A stretch of 64,000 bases of DNA from a phage. The notes under the pieces were generated by a model that worked only from the letters and a program-made list of their open reading frames with translations, was not told where the DNA came from and did not search any database. The stretch lies in the NCBI GenBank assembly GCA_021469345.1, contig GCA_021469345.1_3049.1; one strand, 5' to 3'. A program made the translations under genes and the position numbers. Shown here one piece after another: positions 2,917 to 45,054 of the stretch (position 1 is its first letter; each line of letters opens with the position of its first letter).

Positions 2917-3119
2917 GCCAAACTAGTATTCTTAAAAATGCCCATTGTGAAAAGTGTAAGTGGCCGGTTGTTTTTGCTTTATGCAACGATGAAATGGCTT
3001 GTGATTTCGATTATTGGTGCTATTGTTCTAATAAAGGATGTATCAATCATAAAGGTGAAGGATTTTATTCGGGATTTTATCCTTATCCAGATTTCGTTAA
3101 AGAAGGTAAACCAAAATGA
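2913..3119 (+). CDS. Cys-rich small protein (tk.2 position)
   Basis: ATG 2913 with ATGA overlap; CEKCK...CDFDYWCYC...C cysteine clusters. Confidence 0.5.
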   Translation: MSQTSILKNAHCEKCKWPVVFALCNDEMACDFDYWCYCSNKGCINHKGEGFYSGFYPYPDFVKEGKPK

Positions 3120-3289
3120 ATAGTTTTGAGTTACAATACGAAGTGTTACGTGAGCTTGATAATTTAATTGAACTCGCTGTTAATAAAGGTTTTGCCATTG
3201 GAATCGGTCAAAAAGATACTGGTCATTTAACTATGGAAATATTTAAGCAAAAGCGAATTATTTTAAAACTCCTGGAAATTAATATATGA
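3116..3289 (+). CDS. hypothetical small protein (57 aa)
   Basis: ATG 3116 overlaps upstream stop (ATGA), stop overlaps next start; below ORF-track cutoff. Confidence 0.4.
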   Translation: MNSFELQYEVLRELDNLIELAVNKGFAIGIGQKDTGHLTMEIFKQKRIILKLLEINI

Positions 3290-22001: not shown

Positions 22002-22287
22002 AACGTATCGTCGTAAAGACTTGAAAGTTCGTGATTATGACTATTTCGGAAAGCGTAAAGCTCCTGATGGGGTAAGTCATAAAGATATGGTTGAAAACAT
22101 TTTTCGCTCAGATAAATGGCGTAGAATGAAAGGTATTGATTCAGAAGTTAAAGATGAGCTAAATCGTCAATTACGCGGTGAAGTAAGAAAGTTGAAAAAA
22201 TCAGTTTACATTGACGATGATTTTGATTATAATACTTCTCAACGAGTTGCTAAACGTAAATCAAACGAGTGTTATCGTTATAGCTGA
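21994..22287 (+). CDS. hypothetical basic protein
   Basis: 97 aa from ATG 21994 overlapping upstream stop. Confidence 0.5.
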   Translation: MGKTYRRKDLKVRDYDYFGKRKAPDGVSHKDMVENIFRSDKWRRMKGIDSEVKDELNRQLRGEVRKLKKSVYIDDDFDYNTSQRVAKRKSNECYRYS

Positions 22288-22294
22288 GGAAAAT

Positions 22295-22426
22295 ATGAAT
22301 ATCAAACGAATGCTTTTTAAGCAGGGGTTATATACTTTAAATGTTACTCCAAAAGGCGATACAACTAAGTGGTCAGTAAATGACTGGATTAAATTTATTG
22401 ATGAAAATGGTAATTGGGAAATTTAA
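22295..22426 (+). CDS. hypothetical small protein (43 aa)
   Basis: ATG 22295 with RBS GAGGAAAA. Confidence 0.35.
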   Translation: MNIKRMLFKQGLYTLNVTPKGDTTKWSVNDWIKFIDENGNWEI

Positions 22427-22627
22427 ATGAATCCTGAATCTAAATTATCGCAGCGAATTGCTGAAGAACGCGCCAAATTTTTCCAGAACATGAAACACAA
22501 TGGTATTGAGGATGAAGTTTTTCTAAATTGGTTCTGGAATAATAAGTATGCAGCATGTGAAGGAGCTTTGTCATTGTCAGTCGCAATGATGTACGAAGGC
22601 TGGAAGGGTGCCAAAAAGTTTAGCTAA
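22427..22627 (+). CDS. hypothetical small protein
   Basis: 66-aa ORF followed by terminator. Confidence 0.45.
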   Translation: MNPESKLSQRIAEERAKFFQNMKHNGIEDEVFLNWFWNNKYAACEGALSLSVAMMYEGWKGAKKFS

Positions 22628-39852: not shown

Positions 39853-41280
39853 GTGGTAGAAATTATTCTTTCTCATCTTATATTTGATCAAGCTTATTTT
39901 TCAAAAGTTTGGCCATATATGGATTCAGAATATTTTGAAAGTGGTCCAGCTAAAAATACGTTCAAATTAATTAAATCTCATGTTAATGAGTATCATAGCG
40001 TTCCATCTATTAATGCGTTAAATGTTGCATTAGAAAATAGTTCATTTACTGAAACAGAATATTCTGGTGTAAAAACACTTATTTCAAAACTAGCTGATTC
40101 TCCGGAAGACCACAGCTGGTTAGTAAAAGAAACAGAAAAATATGTTCAGCAAAGGGCGATGTTTAATGCTACGTCTAAAATAATCGAAATTCAAACTAAT
40201 GCTGAGCTTCCTCCGGAAAAACGAAATAAGAAAATGCCGGATGTTGGTGCTATTCCTGACATTATGCGTCAAGCATTATCAATTTCATTTGATAGCTACG
40301 TTGGTCATGATTGGATGGATGACTACGAAGCACGTTGGCTATCTTATATGAATAAAGCTCGTAAGGTTCCATTTAAACTCAGAATTCTAAACAAAATTAC
40401 TAAAGGCGGAGCTGAGACTGGAACGCTGAACGTTTTAATGGCTGGCGTTAACGTTGGTAAATCATTAGGACTTTGTTCATTAGCAGCAGATTATTTGCAG
40501 CTTGGTCATAACGTTCTTTATATCTCCATGGAAATGGCAGAAGAAGTCTGTGCTAAGCGTATTGACGCTAATATGCTTGATGTTTCTCTTGATGACATTG
40601 ATGATGGACATATTTCTTACGCTGAGTATAAAGGAAAAATGGAAAAATGGCGTGAGAAATCTACTCTCGGTCGTTTAATTGTTAAACAGTATCCTACTGG
40701 TGGAGCAGATGCTAATACATTTCGATCACTTTTAAACGAATTGAAGCTCAAAAAGAATTTTGTTCCAACAATCATTATTGTCGACTATCTAGGTATTTGT
40801 AAATCTTGCCGCATTAGAGTTTATTCAGAAAATAGTTACACAACTGTTAAAGCTATTGCAGAGGAATTGCGGGCTCTGGCTGTTGAAACCGAAACTGTTC
40901 TTTGGACTGCAGCGCAGGTTGGTAAACAAGCTTGGGATTCTTCCGATGTTAACATGAGCGATATTGCAGAATCTGCCGGTCTTCCAGCGACAGCCGATTT
41001 TATGCTTGCGGTCATTGAAACCGAGGAGCTAGCAGCTGCTGAACAACAACTCATTAAGCAAATCAAATCACGATATGGTGATAAGAACAAATGGAATAAG
41101 TTTTTGATGGGTGTTCAAAAAGGAAATCAGAAATGGGTAGAAATTGAACAAGATTCTACTCCAACTGGAGTGAGTGAAGTAGCAGGTTCACAACAGATTC
41201 AGGCTGAGCAGAATCGCTATCAAAGAAACGAATCGACTCGAGCTCAGTTAGATGCTTTGGCAAATGAATTAAAATTTTAG
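39853..41280 (+). CDS. 41: replicative DNA helicase gp41 (DnaB-like)
   Basis: 475 aa, GTG start after RBS TAAGGAG; Walker A GVNVGKS. Confidence 0.95.
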   Translation: MVEIILSHLIFDQAYFSKVWPYMDSEYFESGPAKNTFKLIKSHVNEYHSVPSINALNVALENSSFTETEYSGVKTLISKLADSPEDHSWLVKETEKYVQQRAMFNATSKIIEIQTNAELPPEKRNKKMPDVGAIPDIMRQALSISFDSYVGHDWMDDYEARWLSYMNKARKVPFKLRILNKITKGGAETGTLNVLMAGVNVGKSLGLCSLAADYLQLGHNVLYISMEMAEEVCAKRIDANMLDVSLDDIDDGHISYAEYKGKMEKWREKSTLGRLIVKQYPTGGADANTFRSLLNELKLKKNFVPTIIIVDYLGICKSCRIRVYSENSYTTVKAIAEELRALAVETETVLWTAAQVGKQAWDSSDVNMSDIAESAGLPATADFMLAVIETEELAAAEQQLIKQIKSRYGDKNKWNKFLMGVQKGNQKWVEIEQDSTPTGVSEVAGSQQIQAEQNRYQRNESTRAQLDALANELKF

Positions 41281-41309
41281 TTTACAAGCTGACGAGACTA
41301 TGGTATAGT
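41280..41309 (+). promoter_or_regulatory. early promoter (GTTTAC-N18-TGGTATAGT)
   Basis: GTTTAC 41280-41285 overlapping gene 41 stop; TATAGT 41304-41309. Confidence 0.55.
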
Positions 41310-41338
41310 AGTCTTGTTGGTTAAATGAGGAGATTTTT

Positions 41339-41521
41339 ATGGAATTGGTAAAGGTAGTTTTTATGGGGTGGTTTAAGAATGAAAGCATGTTTACTAAAGA
41401 AATCACAATGATGAAAGATGACGTTCAATGGGCTACTACTCAATATGCTGAAGTTAATAAAGCATTAGTTAAAGCTTTCATTGATGACAAGAAAGTATGT
41501 GAAGTGGATTGCCGAGGATAA
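41339..41521 (+). CDS. dmd: Dmd antitoxin (inhibitor of RnlA/LsoA RNase toxins)
   Basis: 60 aa; size and position immediately after gene 41. Confidence 0.8.
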   Translation: MELVKVVFMGWFKNESMFTKEITMMKDDVQWATTQYAEVNKALVKAFIDDKKVCEVDCRG

Positions 41522-41522
41522 T

Positions 41523-41780
41523 ATGCATATTGTTTTATTTAAACCTACACCGTATAACATCAGGAAAAATACTCAATTCAAAGCACTTATTGCAGATACG
41601 TGGGAATTGGTGTTAGATATTCCACCAGAAGAAAGTCCTCCATCTGGTCGAGTGGAATTTATTAAGTTTGCTGTACGTCCTACGAAACGACAGATTCGTC
41701 AGTGTAAAAGGTATTTTCGTAAGATCGTTAAGCTAGAGAAACAGTTTGTAACATGTGATTACGCAAAAGTTTTAAAATAA
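41523..41780 (+). CDS. small basic protein at the 61.4 position (TifA-like, putative RNA-binding toxin-antitoxin inhibitor)
   Basis: 85 aa from ATG 41523; Lys/Arg-rich; adjacent to dmd. Confidence 0.55.
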   Translation: MHIVLFKPTPYNIRKNTQFKALIADTWELVLDIPPEESPPSGRVEFIKFAVRPTKRQIRQCKRYFRKIVKLEKQFVTCDYAKVLK

Positions 41781-41782
41781 CT

Positions 41783-41812
41783 GTTTACTTTTATTGGAAA
41801 TTGAGATACTAT
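41783..41812 (+). promoter_or_regulatory. early promoter (GTTTAC-N18-TACTAT)
   Basis: GTTTAC 41783-41788, TACTAT 41807-41812. Confidence 0.5.
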
Positions 41813-41841
41813 ATAAACATAAACTACTGAGGAGATTAATC

Positions 41842-42135
41842 ATGAAAAAATTTATCTTTGCTACAATTTTTGCTTTGGCTTCTTGTGCTGCTCAGCCTGC
41901 TATGGCAGGTTATGATAAAGATTTGTGCGAATGGTCTATGACTGCGGATCAGACTGAGGTTGAAACTCAAATTGAAGCAGATATTATGAATATCGTTGAG
42001 CGCGATCGTCCTGAAATGAAAGCTGAAGTGCAAAAACAACTTAAGTCTGGTGGTGTAATGCAGTATAATTATGTTCTGTATTGCGATAAAAACTTTAATA
42101 ACAAAAATATCGTAACCGAAATCACAGGTGAATAA
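41842..42135 (+). CDS. sp: Spackle periplasmic protein (superinfection exclusion)
   Basis: 97 aa from ATG 41842 (RBS GAGGAG); signal peptide MKKFIFATIFALASCAAQPAMA. Confidence 0.8.
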   Translation: MKKFIFATIFALASCAAQPAMAGYDKDLCEWSMTADQTEVETQIEADIMNIVERDRPEMKAEVQKQLKSGGVMQYNYVLYCDKNFNNKNIVTEITGE

Positions 42136-42136
42136 T

Positions 42137-42769
42137 ATGATTTATTATATGCACAAAAATCCACCGTTTAAATACGGTAAATTTCCTGATGCACAATGTT
42201 ATAATATAACGCCTGATGAAAATAACCGTGGATATCTTATTGGCACAATTTTTGTAATTGTTAAAGATAACGAAATCGTTGCCTGGGCAGATTTTAAAGG
42301 TACAACACATGATGTTAATCCGGTGCCTTTCACATATTACAATATAATGGATTTGGCATATGATTATAATTGGTTTAATCATGACAATTTAGTTCATATT
42401 GAAGGCGTAGGATTTGACATCTCTTATTCTAGTTATTCGTTGTGCCCTATGAGCCGAGCTTATAAAGAGCCTGAATATTTTTCATTTCGTCGGCGTGTAG
42501 ACTTTAAACGCAGTACAGAGTATGTCGGTGGAATCTTTGTTAAAGATAATCGAATTACTCGCATTATTTATCCTTTGGGCTTTGGTCAAAAAGATATTGA
42601 TGTTGATTTAGACTTTACTGAAAACAGCATTAATCATATTGCTTCTGTGTATTTTGATATTGATCACAAAATTGTAATATGTGGATATGAATTACCATCC
42701 GAAAAACAGTCTAAAGTAAATGTTTCTATTGATGACCAAATTTTTAATGCTTTTATGAATAGAGGTTAA
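42137..42769 (+). CDS. hypothetical protein at the 61.2 position (AdfA-like, reported anti-DarTG factor)
   Basis: 210 aa from ATG 42137; positional correspondence only. Confidence 0.55.
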   Translation: MIYYMHKNPPFKYGKFPDAQCYNITPDENNRGYLIGTIFVIVKDNEIVAWADFKGTTHDVNPVPFTYYNIMDLAYDYNWFNHDNLVHIEGVGFDISYSSYSLCPMSRAYKEPEYFSFRRRVDFKRSTEYVGGIFVKDNRITRIIYPLGFGQKDIDVDLDFTENSINHIASVYFDIDHKIVICGYELPSEKQSKVNVSIDDQIFNAFMNRG

Positions 42770-42770
42770 T

Positions 42771-42935
42771 ATGAAAACATTTAAAGAATTTATCAAAGAA
42801 GATATGGTCGCTGGAGATTCAGGTGGTAATCCTGAAAATATCTCTACTGGAACAACATCAGGTGCTGTAGTAAATAAAGGTCCTGAACAGATTCCTAAAA
42901 AGAAAAAAGAGGAATCTAAAGAAAAAGAAGAGTAA
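42771..42935 (+). CDS. hypothetical small Lys/Glu-rich protein (61.1 position)
   Basis: 54 aa from ATG 42771. Confidence 0.4.
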   Translation: MKTFKEFIKEDMVAGDSGGNPENISTGTTSGAVVNKGPEQIPKKKKEESKEKEE

Positions 42936-42937
42936 AA

Positions 42938-43966
42938 ATGTCATCAATACCTTGGATTGATAATGAGTTTGCATACCGTGCATTAGCTCATTTACCTAAA
43001 TTCACACAAGTAAATAATAGTTCAACTTTTAAATTGCGGTTTAGATGCCCAGTGTGTGGAGATTCAAAAACCGACCAAAATAAAGCCCGTGGATGGTATT
43101 ATGGTGATAATAATGAAGGAAATATTCATTGTTATAACTGTAACTATCATGCACCAATCGGAATATATTTAAAGGAGTTTGAACCTGATTTATATCGTGA
43201 GTATATCTTTGAAATAAGAAAAGAAAAAGGTAAAAGTCGTCCAGTAGAAAAACCTAAAGAACTTCCTAAACAACCTGAGAAGAAAATAATTAAATCTCTT
43301 CCGTCATGTGTTCGATTAGATAAACTGGCGGAAGACCATGCAATTATAAAATATATAAAAGCTCGTTGTATTCCAAAGGATAAATGGAAATATCTTTGGT
43401 TTACAACTGAATGGCCTAAATTAGTTAATAGCATAGCACCGGGAACATATAAAAAGGAAATACCTGAGCCTCGTCTTGTTATTCCAATTTATAATGCTAA
43501 TGGAAAAGCTGAGTCTTTTCAAGGACGTGCATTAAAGAAAGATGCTCCTCAAAAATATATCACCATCAAAGCTTATCCTGAGGCAACAAAAATCTATGGA
43601 GTCGAACGAGTTAAAGATGGTGATGTATATGTTCTAGAAGGACCTATAGATTCACTTTTTATTGAAAATGGTATAGCTATTACGGGCGGTCAATTAGACC
43701 TAGAAGTTGTTCCATTTAAAGATAGACGTGTGTGGGTTTTAGATAATGAACCTCGTCATCCTGACACTATTAAGCGAATGACTAAATTAGTTGATGCAGG
43801 AGAAAGGGTTATGTTTTGGGATAAATCTCCCTGGAAATCAAAAGATGTTAATGATATGATTAGAAAGGAAGGTGCAACCCCTGAACAAATTATGGAATAT
43901 ATGAAAAATAATATTGCCCAGGGGTTAATGGCTAAAATGCGGTTATCTAAATATGCTAAGATTTAA
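42938..43966 (+). CDS. 61: DNA primase gp61
   Basis: 342 aa; N-terminal zinc ribbon CPVCGDS...CYNC; TOPRIM-like core. Confidence 0.95.
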   Translation: MSSIPWIDNEFAYRALAHLPKFTQVNNSSTFKLRFRCPVCGDSKTDQNKARGWYYGDNNEGNIHCYNCNYHAPIGIYLKEFEPDLYREYIFEIRKEKGKSRPVEKPKELPKQPEKKIIKSLPSCVRLDKLAEDHAIIKYIKARCIPKDKWKYLWFTTEWPKLVNSIAPGTYKKEIPEPRLVIPIYNANGKAESFQGRALKKDAPQKYITIKAYPEATKIYGVERVKDGDVYVLEGPIDSLFIENGIAITGGQLDLEVVPFKDRRVWVLDNEPRHPDTIKRMTKLVDAGERVMFWDKSPWKSKDVNDMIRKEGATPEQIMEYMKNNIAQGLMAKMRLSKYAKI

Positions 43967-44163
43967 ATTAACCCAACTAAAGCAAATGCTAAATCTACAA
44001 ATGTATCAAGAGTAACTACTGGAATACTAACGCCATGAGCAATAGCAACTGGCGATAAAACAAAATTCCAAAGTAAAATTCCTACCATAGCAGAAATAGT
44101 AAAAGCTATACGCTTTTTATTACCTTTGATGGCATTAACAAGTGCCATTAATTTTTGTACCAT
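43963..44163 (-). CDS. small membrane protein, only minus-strand gene in the window
   Basis: 66 aa; minus-strand RBS AAAGGAGG 4 nt before ATG; two hydrophobic segments; stop overlaps gene 61 stop convergently. Confidence 0.5.
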   Translation of the reverse strand: MVQKLMALVNAIKGNKKRIAFTISAMVGILLWNFVLSPVAIAHGVSIPVVTLDTFVDLAFALVGLI

Positions 44164-44265
44164 ATGTCCTCCTTTAAATTAATATTTATCGCAAAACGTG
44201 TTAGTATTACTATCAAATACATATGATGAAGAATTGTATAATTCGTTTTTTGCTGCAATAAATGA

Positions 44266-45054
<789 letters not shown>

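Follow-up and report, generated by a model that had tools for sequence, protein, structure and literature searches.

The T4-type dmd–tifA–sp–adfA–61.1 locus between the helicase and primase genes of a phage genome

Gene content and transcription of the locus

The stretch of DNA analysed here, hereafter the window, comprises 64,000 nucleotides of a phage contig (GCA_021469345.1_3049.1). Between gene 41, which encodes the replicative helicase (39853–41280, + strand; 473 of 475 residues identical to T4 gp41), and gene 61, which encodes the primase (42938–43966, + strand; 337/342 identical to T4 gp61), five tightly packed plus-strand ORFs exactly fill positions 41339–42935 in both the ORF listing and the raw sequence, the very coordinates at which a first-pass annotation of this DNA had placed five small genes. 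In order, they are dmd (gene 61.5; 41339–41521, 60 aa), tifA (gene 61.4; 41523–41780, 85 aa), sp (gene 61.3; 41842–42135, 97 aa), adfA (gene 61.2; 42137–42769, 210 aa) and gene 61.1 (42771–42935, 54 aa), all on the + strand. The intervals from dmd through to gene 61 measure 1, 61, 1, 1 and 2 nt, and the sole 61-nt gap, between tifA and sp, is the site of a promoter. The 85-aa tifA frame opens with an ATG that has a GAGGA Shine–Dalgarno sequence ahead of it and lies 1 nt past the dmd stop.

In global alignments with the T4 products, Dmd is 100%, TifA 94%, Spackle 95%, AdfA 80% and gp61.1 98% identical. Four of the five proteins match Pfam families, namely Dmd (PF17587, 1.6e-46), DUF7279 (PF23945, 8.8e-20, for TifA), T4_Spackle (PF25676, 3.5e-45) and AdfA (PF23813, 1.4e-137), and each of the five has a PHROG family match (7e-34 to 1.6e-136), although none is matched by NCBIfam. 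Hundreds of Tequatrovirus genomes are 95–97% identical to the region at the DNA level, and synteny extends to T4, RB51, RB69 and 14 further loci. Judged by these comparisons, the five ORFs are genuine genes rather than chance ORFs, and all five are orthologues of T4 genes. The alignments to the T4 61.1–61.5 products proposed as a check thus found similarity throughout, including for TifA and AdfA, whose dissimilarity would have counted against the first-pass annotation; these two names, originally given by position, are now confirmed by sequence and agree with published usage, in which 61.4 is tifA and 61.2 is adfA (PMC9391042). Minus-strand ORFs of 86, 67 and 45 aa within the block, lacking any PHROG match, were set aside as spurious, and Rfam searched over 41000–44400 at E up to 0.1 returned no family. 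With a probability of roughly 0.9, we regard the region as the Tequatrovirus (T4-type) dmd–tifA–sp–adfA–61.1 locus, a compact early block between the helicase and primase genes.

Two sigma-70 early promoters would transcribe the whole five-gene block. The first, P1 (41281–41309, + strand; TTTACA-17 nt-TATAGT with an upstream TG), serves dmd and tifA; it is the top promoter-like site in the scan (10/12 with the TG), carries a G before the hexamer that completes the T4 early GTTTACA box, and has hexamers identical in T4, RB51 and L009. For the T4 dmd–61.4 operon, transcription from an early promoter ahead of dmd has been described (PMC9391042). The second, P2 (41784–41812, + strand; TTTACT-17 nt-TACTAT), serves sp, adfA and 61.1, with transcription probably continuing into gene 61. 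It matches the consensus at 8/12 positions, under the scan threshold, and its hexamers and 17-nt spacing are kept in T4, RB51, L009 and the distant JS98, where the spacer sequence itself has diverged. The T4 RNAs of sp, 61.2 and 61.1 are classed as early, and dmd, 61.4, sp and 61.2 fall into both the early RNA and the early protein classes (PMC9697503 supplement). The idea that the five genes follow gene 41 under their own early promoters therefore holds as regards the presence of early promoters, but not as one promoter per gene, since two serve all five.

Toxin inhibitors, Spackle and the mosaic adfA gene

Experiments in T4 or RB69 have established what four of the five products do (PMC9391042, PMC10853763, PMC7677548, PMC11257639). 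Because the products are orthologous (80–100% identity), the same mechanisms as in T4 and RB69 are expected here, the activity of the present alleles being what we infer. The Dmd-like antitoxin proposed by the first-pass annotation is identical to T4 Dmd at 60 of 60 residues, spans positions 1–60 of 60 in the Pfam model, and matches the PDB chain 5hy3_B, ‘Antitoxin Dmd’ (1.8e-37). [quoted passage not shown]

The small basic protein at the TifA position (pI 10.0) is identical to T4 gp61.4/TifA at 80 of its 85 residues, scores 70.8 bits against DUF7279 (cut-off 24.5 bits) and matches phrog_2375 (7.9e-37); a PDB search retrieved no relative of either TifA or AdfA. TifA, a basic protein that binds RNA, inhibits the endoribonuclease ToxN by locking it into an inactive ribonucleoprotein complex, and RNA binding by the RB69 protein needs the central basic cluster K55, R56 and R59 (PMC10853763). 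Residues 51–62 of the present protein read VRPTKRQIRQCK, with K55, R56 and R59 as in RB69, and by orthology it would bind ToxN together with RNA, holding the toxin inactive. Residue 41 is Ser here, Phe in T4 and His in RB69. The substitution F41S strengthens ToxN binding, co-precipitation, rescue and inhibition alike (PMC10853763), and wild-type T4 TifA overcomes only chromosomal toxIN, not plasmid-borne toxIN (PMC9391042). Ser41 therefore predicts that this phage resists plasmid-borne toxIN better than T4 does; Thu1/R2, another phage with Ser41, plates well on hosts with plasmid toxIN.

The third product was rightly called periplasmic Spackle: it is identical to T4 Spackle at 92 of 97 residues and matches PDB 6x6o (2.1e-60), and the alignment with the mature chain 7cn6 begins at residue 23, past the AMA signal-peptide site. 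Spackle inhibits, in the periplasm, the gp5 tail lysozyme of superinfecting T-even phages (PMC7677548), and its orthologue here would be secreted to the same compartment and inhibit the gp5 lysozyme of rivals. The island is thus functionally mixed, as Spackle targets rival phages and not host defences.

The 210-aa protein at the 61.2 position is AdfA, matching the Pfam profile with 456 bits (residues 1–210 on profile positions 1–211) and phrog_3781 at 1.6e-136. Its identity to T4 AdfA (169/211) is unevenly distributed: residues 1–70 are identical to RB51 at 70 of 70 positions, whereas residues 71–210 follow T4 at 137 of 140. At the DNA level, identity to T4 collapses in a mosaic patch (42100–42340, + strand) that covers the 3′ end of sp and approximately the first 65 adfA codons, falling to 52–63% within 42100–42299 as against 96–100% on either side. 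The AdfA N-terminus is dimorphic across the phage collection, where 255 records have the form seen in the window and 232 that of T4, with 0 intermediate. Two sharp alleles at approximately equal frequency are what would be expected if the N-terminus sets target specificity.

In RB69 AdfA, the substitution R164H permits binding and neutralisation of DarT1, a DNA ADP-ribosyltransferase (PMC11257639). The present protein carries His at the equivalent position, its own residue 167 (NSINHIAS, compared with Arg164 in the RB69 motif NINRIAS), and from the combination of an RB69/RB51-type N-terminus with this His164 equivalent, DarT1 neutralisation appears at least as likely as for T4 AdfA. By orthology, AdfA here would bind DarT1; protection against DarTG is doubtful even in T4, where deletion of adfA gives no phenotype against DarTG1, even without adfN (PMC11257639). 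As that deletion is phenotype-free against DarTG1, the real target of AdfA may be another DarT. An AdfA-paralogue cassette common in relatives is absent from the window. The cassettes swapped in the slot between sp and 61.1 all retain one 14-residue C-terminal tail, SIDDQIFNAFMNRG.

The expectation that lineage-specific inhibitors would be found here fits the cassettes of the sp–61.1 slot, which differ among phages, and the extra island genes in RB69 and JS98. The same variability raises the question of whether the block is an island at all. It is possible, though we lean against it, that it is a recombination-tolerant gap between essential replication genes that has collected unrelated small early genes: dmd, tifA and adfA acting against toxins, sp acting in exclusion of other phages, and 61.1 encoding a capsid- or assembly-related peptide. 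Lineage-variable contents in RB69, RB51-type and JS98-type phages, the sharp mosaic patch at the adfA 5′ end and the resemblance of gp61.1 to the major capsid protein gp23 all point that way. However, TA-system toxins are the targets of three of the five gene products, dmd, tifA and sp stand in this order even in JS98, despite protein identities of only 47–69%, and the shared early promoters provide co-regulation at the time when defences act. As a description of the whole, the label of a counter-defence and exclusion island, applied by the first-pass annotation, fits the anti-toxin genes and the exclusion gene but perhaps not gp61.1, which is conserved and resembles a capsid segment.

A conserved peptide with capsid-like features

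Gene 61.1 encodes a product identical to T4 gp61.1 at 53 of 54 residues (phrog_1823, 6.8e-34). It was correctly noted as Lys/Glu-rich, its C-terminal end reading KKKKEESKEKEE. The protein, short and probably disordered, opens with MKTFKEFIKE, a leader like a capsid targeting sequence (CTS); next comes a stretch similar to gp23 around its cleavage junction and N-fist, and then the Lys/Glu tail. It is the most conserved of the set, at approximately 80% identity to JS98 as compared with 47–69% for its neighbours. The family has approximately 20 invariant residues, and its core is kept in 1,509 phage records, from phages whose hosts range from Escherichia to Aeromonas, Acinetobacter and Vibrio. 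Such conservation is far greater than that of typical anti-defence genes. A literature search for gp61.1 function found no paper, and Pfam, searched at E up to 10, gave no match for any family member.

One way to account for the gene is as a translated leader ORF coupled to the primase gene, its peptide having little function of its own. Only 2 nt separate the 61.1 stop from the ATG of gene 61, whose Shine–Dalgarno sequence is weak, and at every locus examined 61.1 is the direct upstream neighbour of the primase gene. We nevertheless think this improbable, as the invariant residues and the core conserved across phages argue for selection on the peptide sequence itself.

The gp61.1 leader matches MKTYQEFIAE, the CTS of the T4 internal proteins (IPs) IPII and IPIII, at 7 of 10 positions, and for the IPIII CTS encapsidation of a GFP fusion has been assayed; IPI begins MKTFKEF, and the first 22 nt of 61.1 are identical to the start of ipI. 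The critical positions of the CTS are residues 4 and 7 for targeting and residues 8 and 10 for processing (PMC9026906), and the gp61.1 leader is compatible at all four (aromatic 4, Phe 7, Ile/Leu 8, Glu 10). Across six frames of the 153.5 kb T4 sequence examined, a relaxed leader pattern combined with an ORF of at least 30 aa finds only ipII, ipIII and 61.1, and in JS98 the strict pattern picks five IP-type ORFs. The following segment resembles gp23 residues 57–93 (BLASTP, 17/37 identical, E 4e-9 pairwise; hhalign probability 92%, E 6e-7; PDB-wide phmmer to 6uzc, E 0.0039), in register with the LTE65|A66 cleavage site. Of 40 family clusters, 37 have a hydrophobic-x-Glu motif ahead of the core, in short and long architectures alike, and ‘major capsid domain-containing protein’ is the name that some family members bear in databases. 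Searched library-wide, the family profile matched 51 clusters and no full-length capsid protein, and because of this the gp23 similarity is a matter of pairwise, profile–profile and PDB-scale statistics only.

From these sequence features, our best guess is that gp61.1 is a prohead-directed, gp21-processed peptide derived from the gp23 N-terminus, and not a toxin inhibitor. In its explicit form, which we put forward tentatively and with the odds against it, gp61.1 would be a prohead-targeted substrate of the gp21 protease, its leader a CTS cut after Glu10. It is similarly conceivable, at no better odds, that the resulting 44-aa product mimics the gp23* N-fist with a basic/acidic tail and is packaged and injected or plays a role in head maturation. 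The corresponding prediction, to be taken with the same caution, is a semi-tryptic peptide DMVAGDSGGNPENISTGTTSGAVVNK with Asp11 at its N-terminus (DMVAGDSGG...). In keeping with this reading, the T4 IP genes likewise have only early-type promoters nearby. Neither a late promoter (TATAAATA) nor a MotA box was found near 61.1, which is uninformative, given that the T4 IP genes also lack them within 200 nt.

Several observations weigh against prohead targeting. The predicted mature gp61.1 is acidic (pI 5.0), whereas T4 IPs are highly basic (PMC8442874), and in this gp61.1 departs from the IPs. The JS98 homologue begins MKSFKEVMNE, with Val at targeting position 7, while the JS98 IPs keep MKTY.EF[IL].E with Phe 7; RB69-type homologues have no N-terminal leader; and the library-wide search, as noted, retrieved no full-length capsid protein. 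In addition, gp61.1 has no protein-level class in the T4 time-course proteome (PMC9697503 supplement) and is absent from the supplementary files examined for one paper discussing T4 head-protein processing. Co-variation of the 61.1 leader with the IP leaders of the same phage was considered separately and is not seen in JS98.

A broader proposal, which we hold to be more doubtful still, is that 61.1 might be a fourth T4-type CTS gene, the family constituting a widespread Straboviridae group of small proteins in which a prohead-protease site (hydrophobic-x-Glu) stands ahead of a free-standing N-fist that serves in N-fist docking, injection or as a decoy. If gp61.1 does enter the prohead and is cut by gp21, its product could occupy the N-fist docking sites of the capsid or be packaged and injected. 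Alternatively, host systems that sense new capsid protein could be its target, with the peptide serving as a decoy; CmdTAC, which senses newly made gp23, is an example of such a system. The Gol peptide of gp23, which activates the Lit protease, comprises approximately residues 93–122, just downstream of the stretch that gp61.1 resembles.

Comparison with known systems

The island as a whole is already known. The T4 region has been proposed as one that ‘may be an anti-TA island’ (Srikant et al. 2022, eLife, PMC9391042), and the anti-toxin character of the locus was published between 2012 and 2024. The likeness of gp61.1 to a CTS and to gp23, as seen in sequence, is the one point that may possibly be new; the leader together with the N-fist-like segment gives an inexpensive, testable way into the function of an uncharacterised conserved T4 gene. 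For T4-like therapeutic phages, TifA Ser41 and a His164-type AdfA can be read directly from sequence and lend themselves to host-range prediction.

T4 and the window agree in gene order, orientation, flanking genes (41 and 61) and both promoters. The T4 locus differs in that AdfA residues 1–70 and the last 6 residues of Spackle belong in the window to the other allele class (45% identity there), in having Phe41 rather than Ser41 in TifA, and in a few other substitutions. The RB51/RB32-type locus has the identical AdfA N-terminal type (70/70) and the same Dmd, Sp and 61.1 as the window, but in RB51 an additional gene of 357 bp, RB32ORF033c (phrog_4122), lies between adfA and 61.1, its product being paralogous to the C-terminal half of AdfA; T4, PE37 and the window are alike without this cassette.

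In RB69 (Mosigvirus), the order of the window recurs, from dmd, tifA, sp and adfA to a homologue of 61.1, with an AdfA N-terminus of the same type (59/70); the AdfA(R164H) validated by experiment and the stronger TifA both derive from this locus. RB69 differs in its native Arg164, the non-neutralising AdfA allele, in a shorter TifA with His41, in imm and imm.1 (superinfection immunity) and four extra ORFs inside the block, and in a 61.1 homologue of 92 aa that has no CTS-like leader. In JS98-type phages, phrog_8539 replaces adfA and a second DUF7279 gene has been added. The T4 internal proteins, finally, share with gp61.1 the leader MKT[YF]xEFIxE, ending in the gp21 cleavage motif, and an upstream early-type promoter; gp61.1 is much smaller, its predicted mature part is acidic, and that part appears N-fist-like, after gp23, rather than IP-like.

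The island between helicase and primase

The phage of the window is a T4-type Tequatrovirus, and five small plus-strand genes lie between gene 41 (helicase, ending at 41280) and gene 61 (primase, starting at 42938), exactly at 41339–42935 as the first-pass annotation had placed them: dmd (41339–41521, 60 aa), tifA (41523–41780, 85 aa), sp (41842–42135, 97 aa), adfA (42137–42769, 210 aa) and 61.1 (42771–42935, 54 aa), with successive gaps of 1, 61, 1, 1 and 2 nt. These ORFs are real genes; all five proteins match a PHROG family and four match Pfam (Dmd, 1.6e-46; DUF7279, 8.8e-20; T4_Spackle, 3.5e-45; AdfA, 1.4e-137). Minus-strand ORFs within the island have no PHROG match, and an Rfam search of the region found no family. 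In the T4 record the genes follow one another in this order too, there on the minus strand (41, dmd, 61.4, sp, 61.2, 61.1, 61), and in global alignments identity to the T4 proteins is 60/60 for Dmd (100%), 92/97 for Spackle (95%), 53/54 for gp61.1 (98%), 473/475 for gp41 (99.6%) and 337/342 for gp61 (98.5%). The labels TifA and AdfA, first given by position, hold up on pairwise alignment, the 85-aa protein being identical to T4 gp61.4 at 80/85 residues (94%) and the 210-aa protein to gp61.2 at 169/211 (80%). Within the phage collection, island and flanks share 95–97% DNA identity with hundreds of Escherichia, Shigella and Yersinia phage genomes, none identical to the window over this stretch.

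The genes had also been credited with their own early promoters. Such promoters are present, yet as two for five genes rather than one each. P1 (41281–41309, plus strand; TTTACA-17-TATAGT with TG), upstream of dmd, is the one strong early-type promoter that the scan found. P2 (41784–41812, plus strand; TTTACT-17-TACTAT), in the gap before sp, scores only 8/12; we nonetheless take it as real, since its hexamers and spacing are kept in T4, RB51 and distant JS98, where the spacer itself has diverged. The scan found no terminator-like site inside the island. In T4, dmd, 61.4, sp and 61.2 are early both as RNA and as protein; 61.1 is early as RNA, its protein having been left unclassified (PMC9697503 supplement). 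Beyond the island, a 66-aa hydrophobic ORF (43963–44163, minus strand) is convergent with gene 61 and extends over the stop codon of that gene. The ORF has a match to phrog_2024 (5e-31; RB32ORF030w in the RB51 annotation), is intact in T4 too, yet is not annotated in NC_000866, and contains a plus-strand terminator-like hairpin (44126–44151).

Alleles of the counter-defence genes

By orthology with the literature, Dmd, TifA, Spackle and AdfA would act here as they do elsewhere: Dmd on the toxins RnlA and LsoA (PMC9391042), TifA on ToxN, Spackle on the gp5 lysozyme of superinfecting T-even phages (PMC7677548) and AdfA on DarT1. A PDB search matched a Dmd chain in entry 5hy3. Spackle, an early periplasmic protein, has a signal peptide in the window, and its mature part aligns to solved chains from residue 23. 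TifA, whose action on ToxN requires RNA binding (PMC10853763), has its RNA-binding residues K55, R56 and R59 intact and differs from T4 at five positions, F41S among them. Ser41 has arisen in experimental evolution and is the natural residue of Thu1/R2, a phage that, with one tifA copy, is able to plate on toxIN hosts; F41S markedly raises ToxN inhibition and co-precipitation (PMC10853763).

AdfA is a chimera, its N-terminus being of RB51 type and its C-terminus of T4 type: residues 1–70 are identical to RB51 at 70/70 positions versus 32/71 for T4, and residues 71–210 to T4 at 137/140 versus 124/140 for RB51. DNA identity to T4 is 52–63% in 42100–42299 and 96–100% in the flanks, delineating a sharp mosaic patch (42100–42340, plus strand) over the 3′ end of sp and the first ~65 adfA codons. 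Across the phage collection the N-terminus forms two discrete classes (255 window-type versus 232 T4-type records) without intermediates. AdfA neutralises the DarT1 ADP-ribosyltransferase by associating with the toxin, and RB69 AdfA needs R164H (PMC11257639); the window protein has His at the equivalent position. Deleting adfA from T4 gives no DarTG1 phenotype (PMC11257639) because AdfN (gp30.3) does that job, so that the natural target of AdfA may be another DarT.

Gene 61.1 and its likeness to capsid proteins

No Pfam family matches gp61.1, and a literature search for it gave nothing. Its residues 1–10, MKTFKEFIKE, closely match MKTYQEFIAE, which serves IPII and IPIII, two internal proteins of T4, as capsid targeting sequence (CTS); the first seven are those of IPI, and the first 22 nt of 61.1 and ipI are identical. 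In a CTS, residues 4 and 7 mainly determine targeting, and residues 8 and 10 processing (PMC9026906; PMC8442874); at all four, gp61.1 is compatible. The leader pattern is specific: across six frames of 153.5 kb of T4, the only ORFs of 30 aa or more that begin with even its relaxed form are ipII, ipIII and 61.1, and its strict form finds five IP-type ORFs in a 50-kb JS98 segment (L023, NC_010105). An unannotated 97-aa ORF of JS98, starting MKTYQEFIKE (about 22263–22553 of the segment, minus strand; about 72263–72553 of the record), sits in the trna.4–57B gap, where T4 has ipI, and probably encodes an internal protein; CTS-type leaders also head orf114 and orf135 of JS98, both annotated as hypothetical.

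Residues 2–38 of gp61.1 further align with residues 57–93 of the T4 major capsid protein gp23 (46% identity, BLASTP E 4e-9; hhalign 92%; PDB search E 0.0039), in register with LTE65|A66, the site at which gp23 is cleaved during maturation, and spanning the N-terminal ~25 residues of mature gp23*. These form the "N-fist", which after expansion touches four adjacent subunits (PMC9958956). In databases, some copies bear the automatic name "major capsid domain-containing protein". Members of the family are present in 1,509 phage records, phages of Klebsiella, Aeromonas, Acinetobacter and Vibrio among them, and make up 51 of the clusters formed at 50% identity from a library of 1.8 billion proteins, in short (50–70 aa) and long forms (90–250 aa, module at the C-terminus). 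In 37/40 clusters a hydrophobic-x-Glu motif, the form of the cleavage site of the prohead protease gp21, lies 0–2 residues ahead of the core MVAGDSGG. Long forms (P0019–P0032 and others) have a conserved ~100-aa N-terminal domain (W..A.K.GIID..G.L.K.P.T..EK.AY..FH) preceding this junction and the N-fist-like module. Identity to JS98 is about 80% for gp61.1 versus 47–69% for TifA, Dmd, gp61, gp41 and Sp, a conservation that is atypical for a fast-evolving inhibitor.

Considering the leader, the gp23 likeness and the large conserved family, we propose that gp61.1 would be a peptide directed to the prohead and processed there by protease, more probably than an inhibitor of toxins. Against a prohead destination stand the unclassified protein in the T4 proteome (PMC9697503 supplement), the acidity of the predicted mature peptide, unlike the IPs, the JS98 61.1 leader, which has diverged at a targeting position whereas those of JS98's own IPs have not, the leaderless RB69-type homologues, and a library-wide search with the family that retrieved no full-length capsid protein. 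As gp23-sensing systems exist, for example CmdTAC (PMC11618068), a decoy role is conceivable, if purely speculative.

The cassette slot and the proposed anti-toxin island

Fourteen related loci from viral contigs, together with RB51 and RB69, have a stable frame (dmd-tifA-sp ... 61.1-61) with variable contents, in support of the earlier expectation that lineage-specific inhibitors reside here. The slot between sp and 61.1 holds adfA (phrog_3781), phrog_4122 (RB32ORF033c, 118 aa, a paralogue of the AdfA C-terminal half), phrog_8539 (a 145-aa family) or combinations; the window has adfA alone. Otherwise different, the three families have in common a 14-residue C-terminal tail, S[IV]DDQIFNAFMNRG, found in the window at the 3′ end of adfA (42728–42769, plus strand) and also in loci L002, L009 and L015–L022. 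Synonymous differences are seen in its DNA, so that selection acts on the peptide itself; the final codons double as the Shine-Dalgarno/ribosome-binding site of the following gene.

The first-pass interpretation of the island is correct but not new. Genes 61.4 and 61.2 have been renamed tifA and adfA, and Srikant et al. (2022) proposed that the region "may be an anti-TA island", its other genes being candidate antitoxins (PMC9391042); locus and concept were both already known. Useful additions are predictions at the level of alleles (Ser41 in TifA, a chimeric AdfA of the His164 type, no paralogue cassette) and the proposed role of gp61.1. Unlike the island here, the RB69 block contains imm, imm.1 and four extra ORFs, and JS98-type phages (L016–L022) carry between slot and 61.1, at about 3047–3268, a second gene of the TifA family DUF7279 (73 aa, phrog_3272, Pfam 5.8e-20), whose product shares 32–39% identity with TifA of the window and could act as a further inhibitor of RNase toxins.
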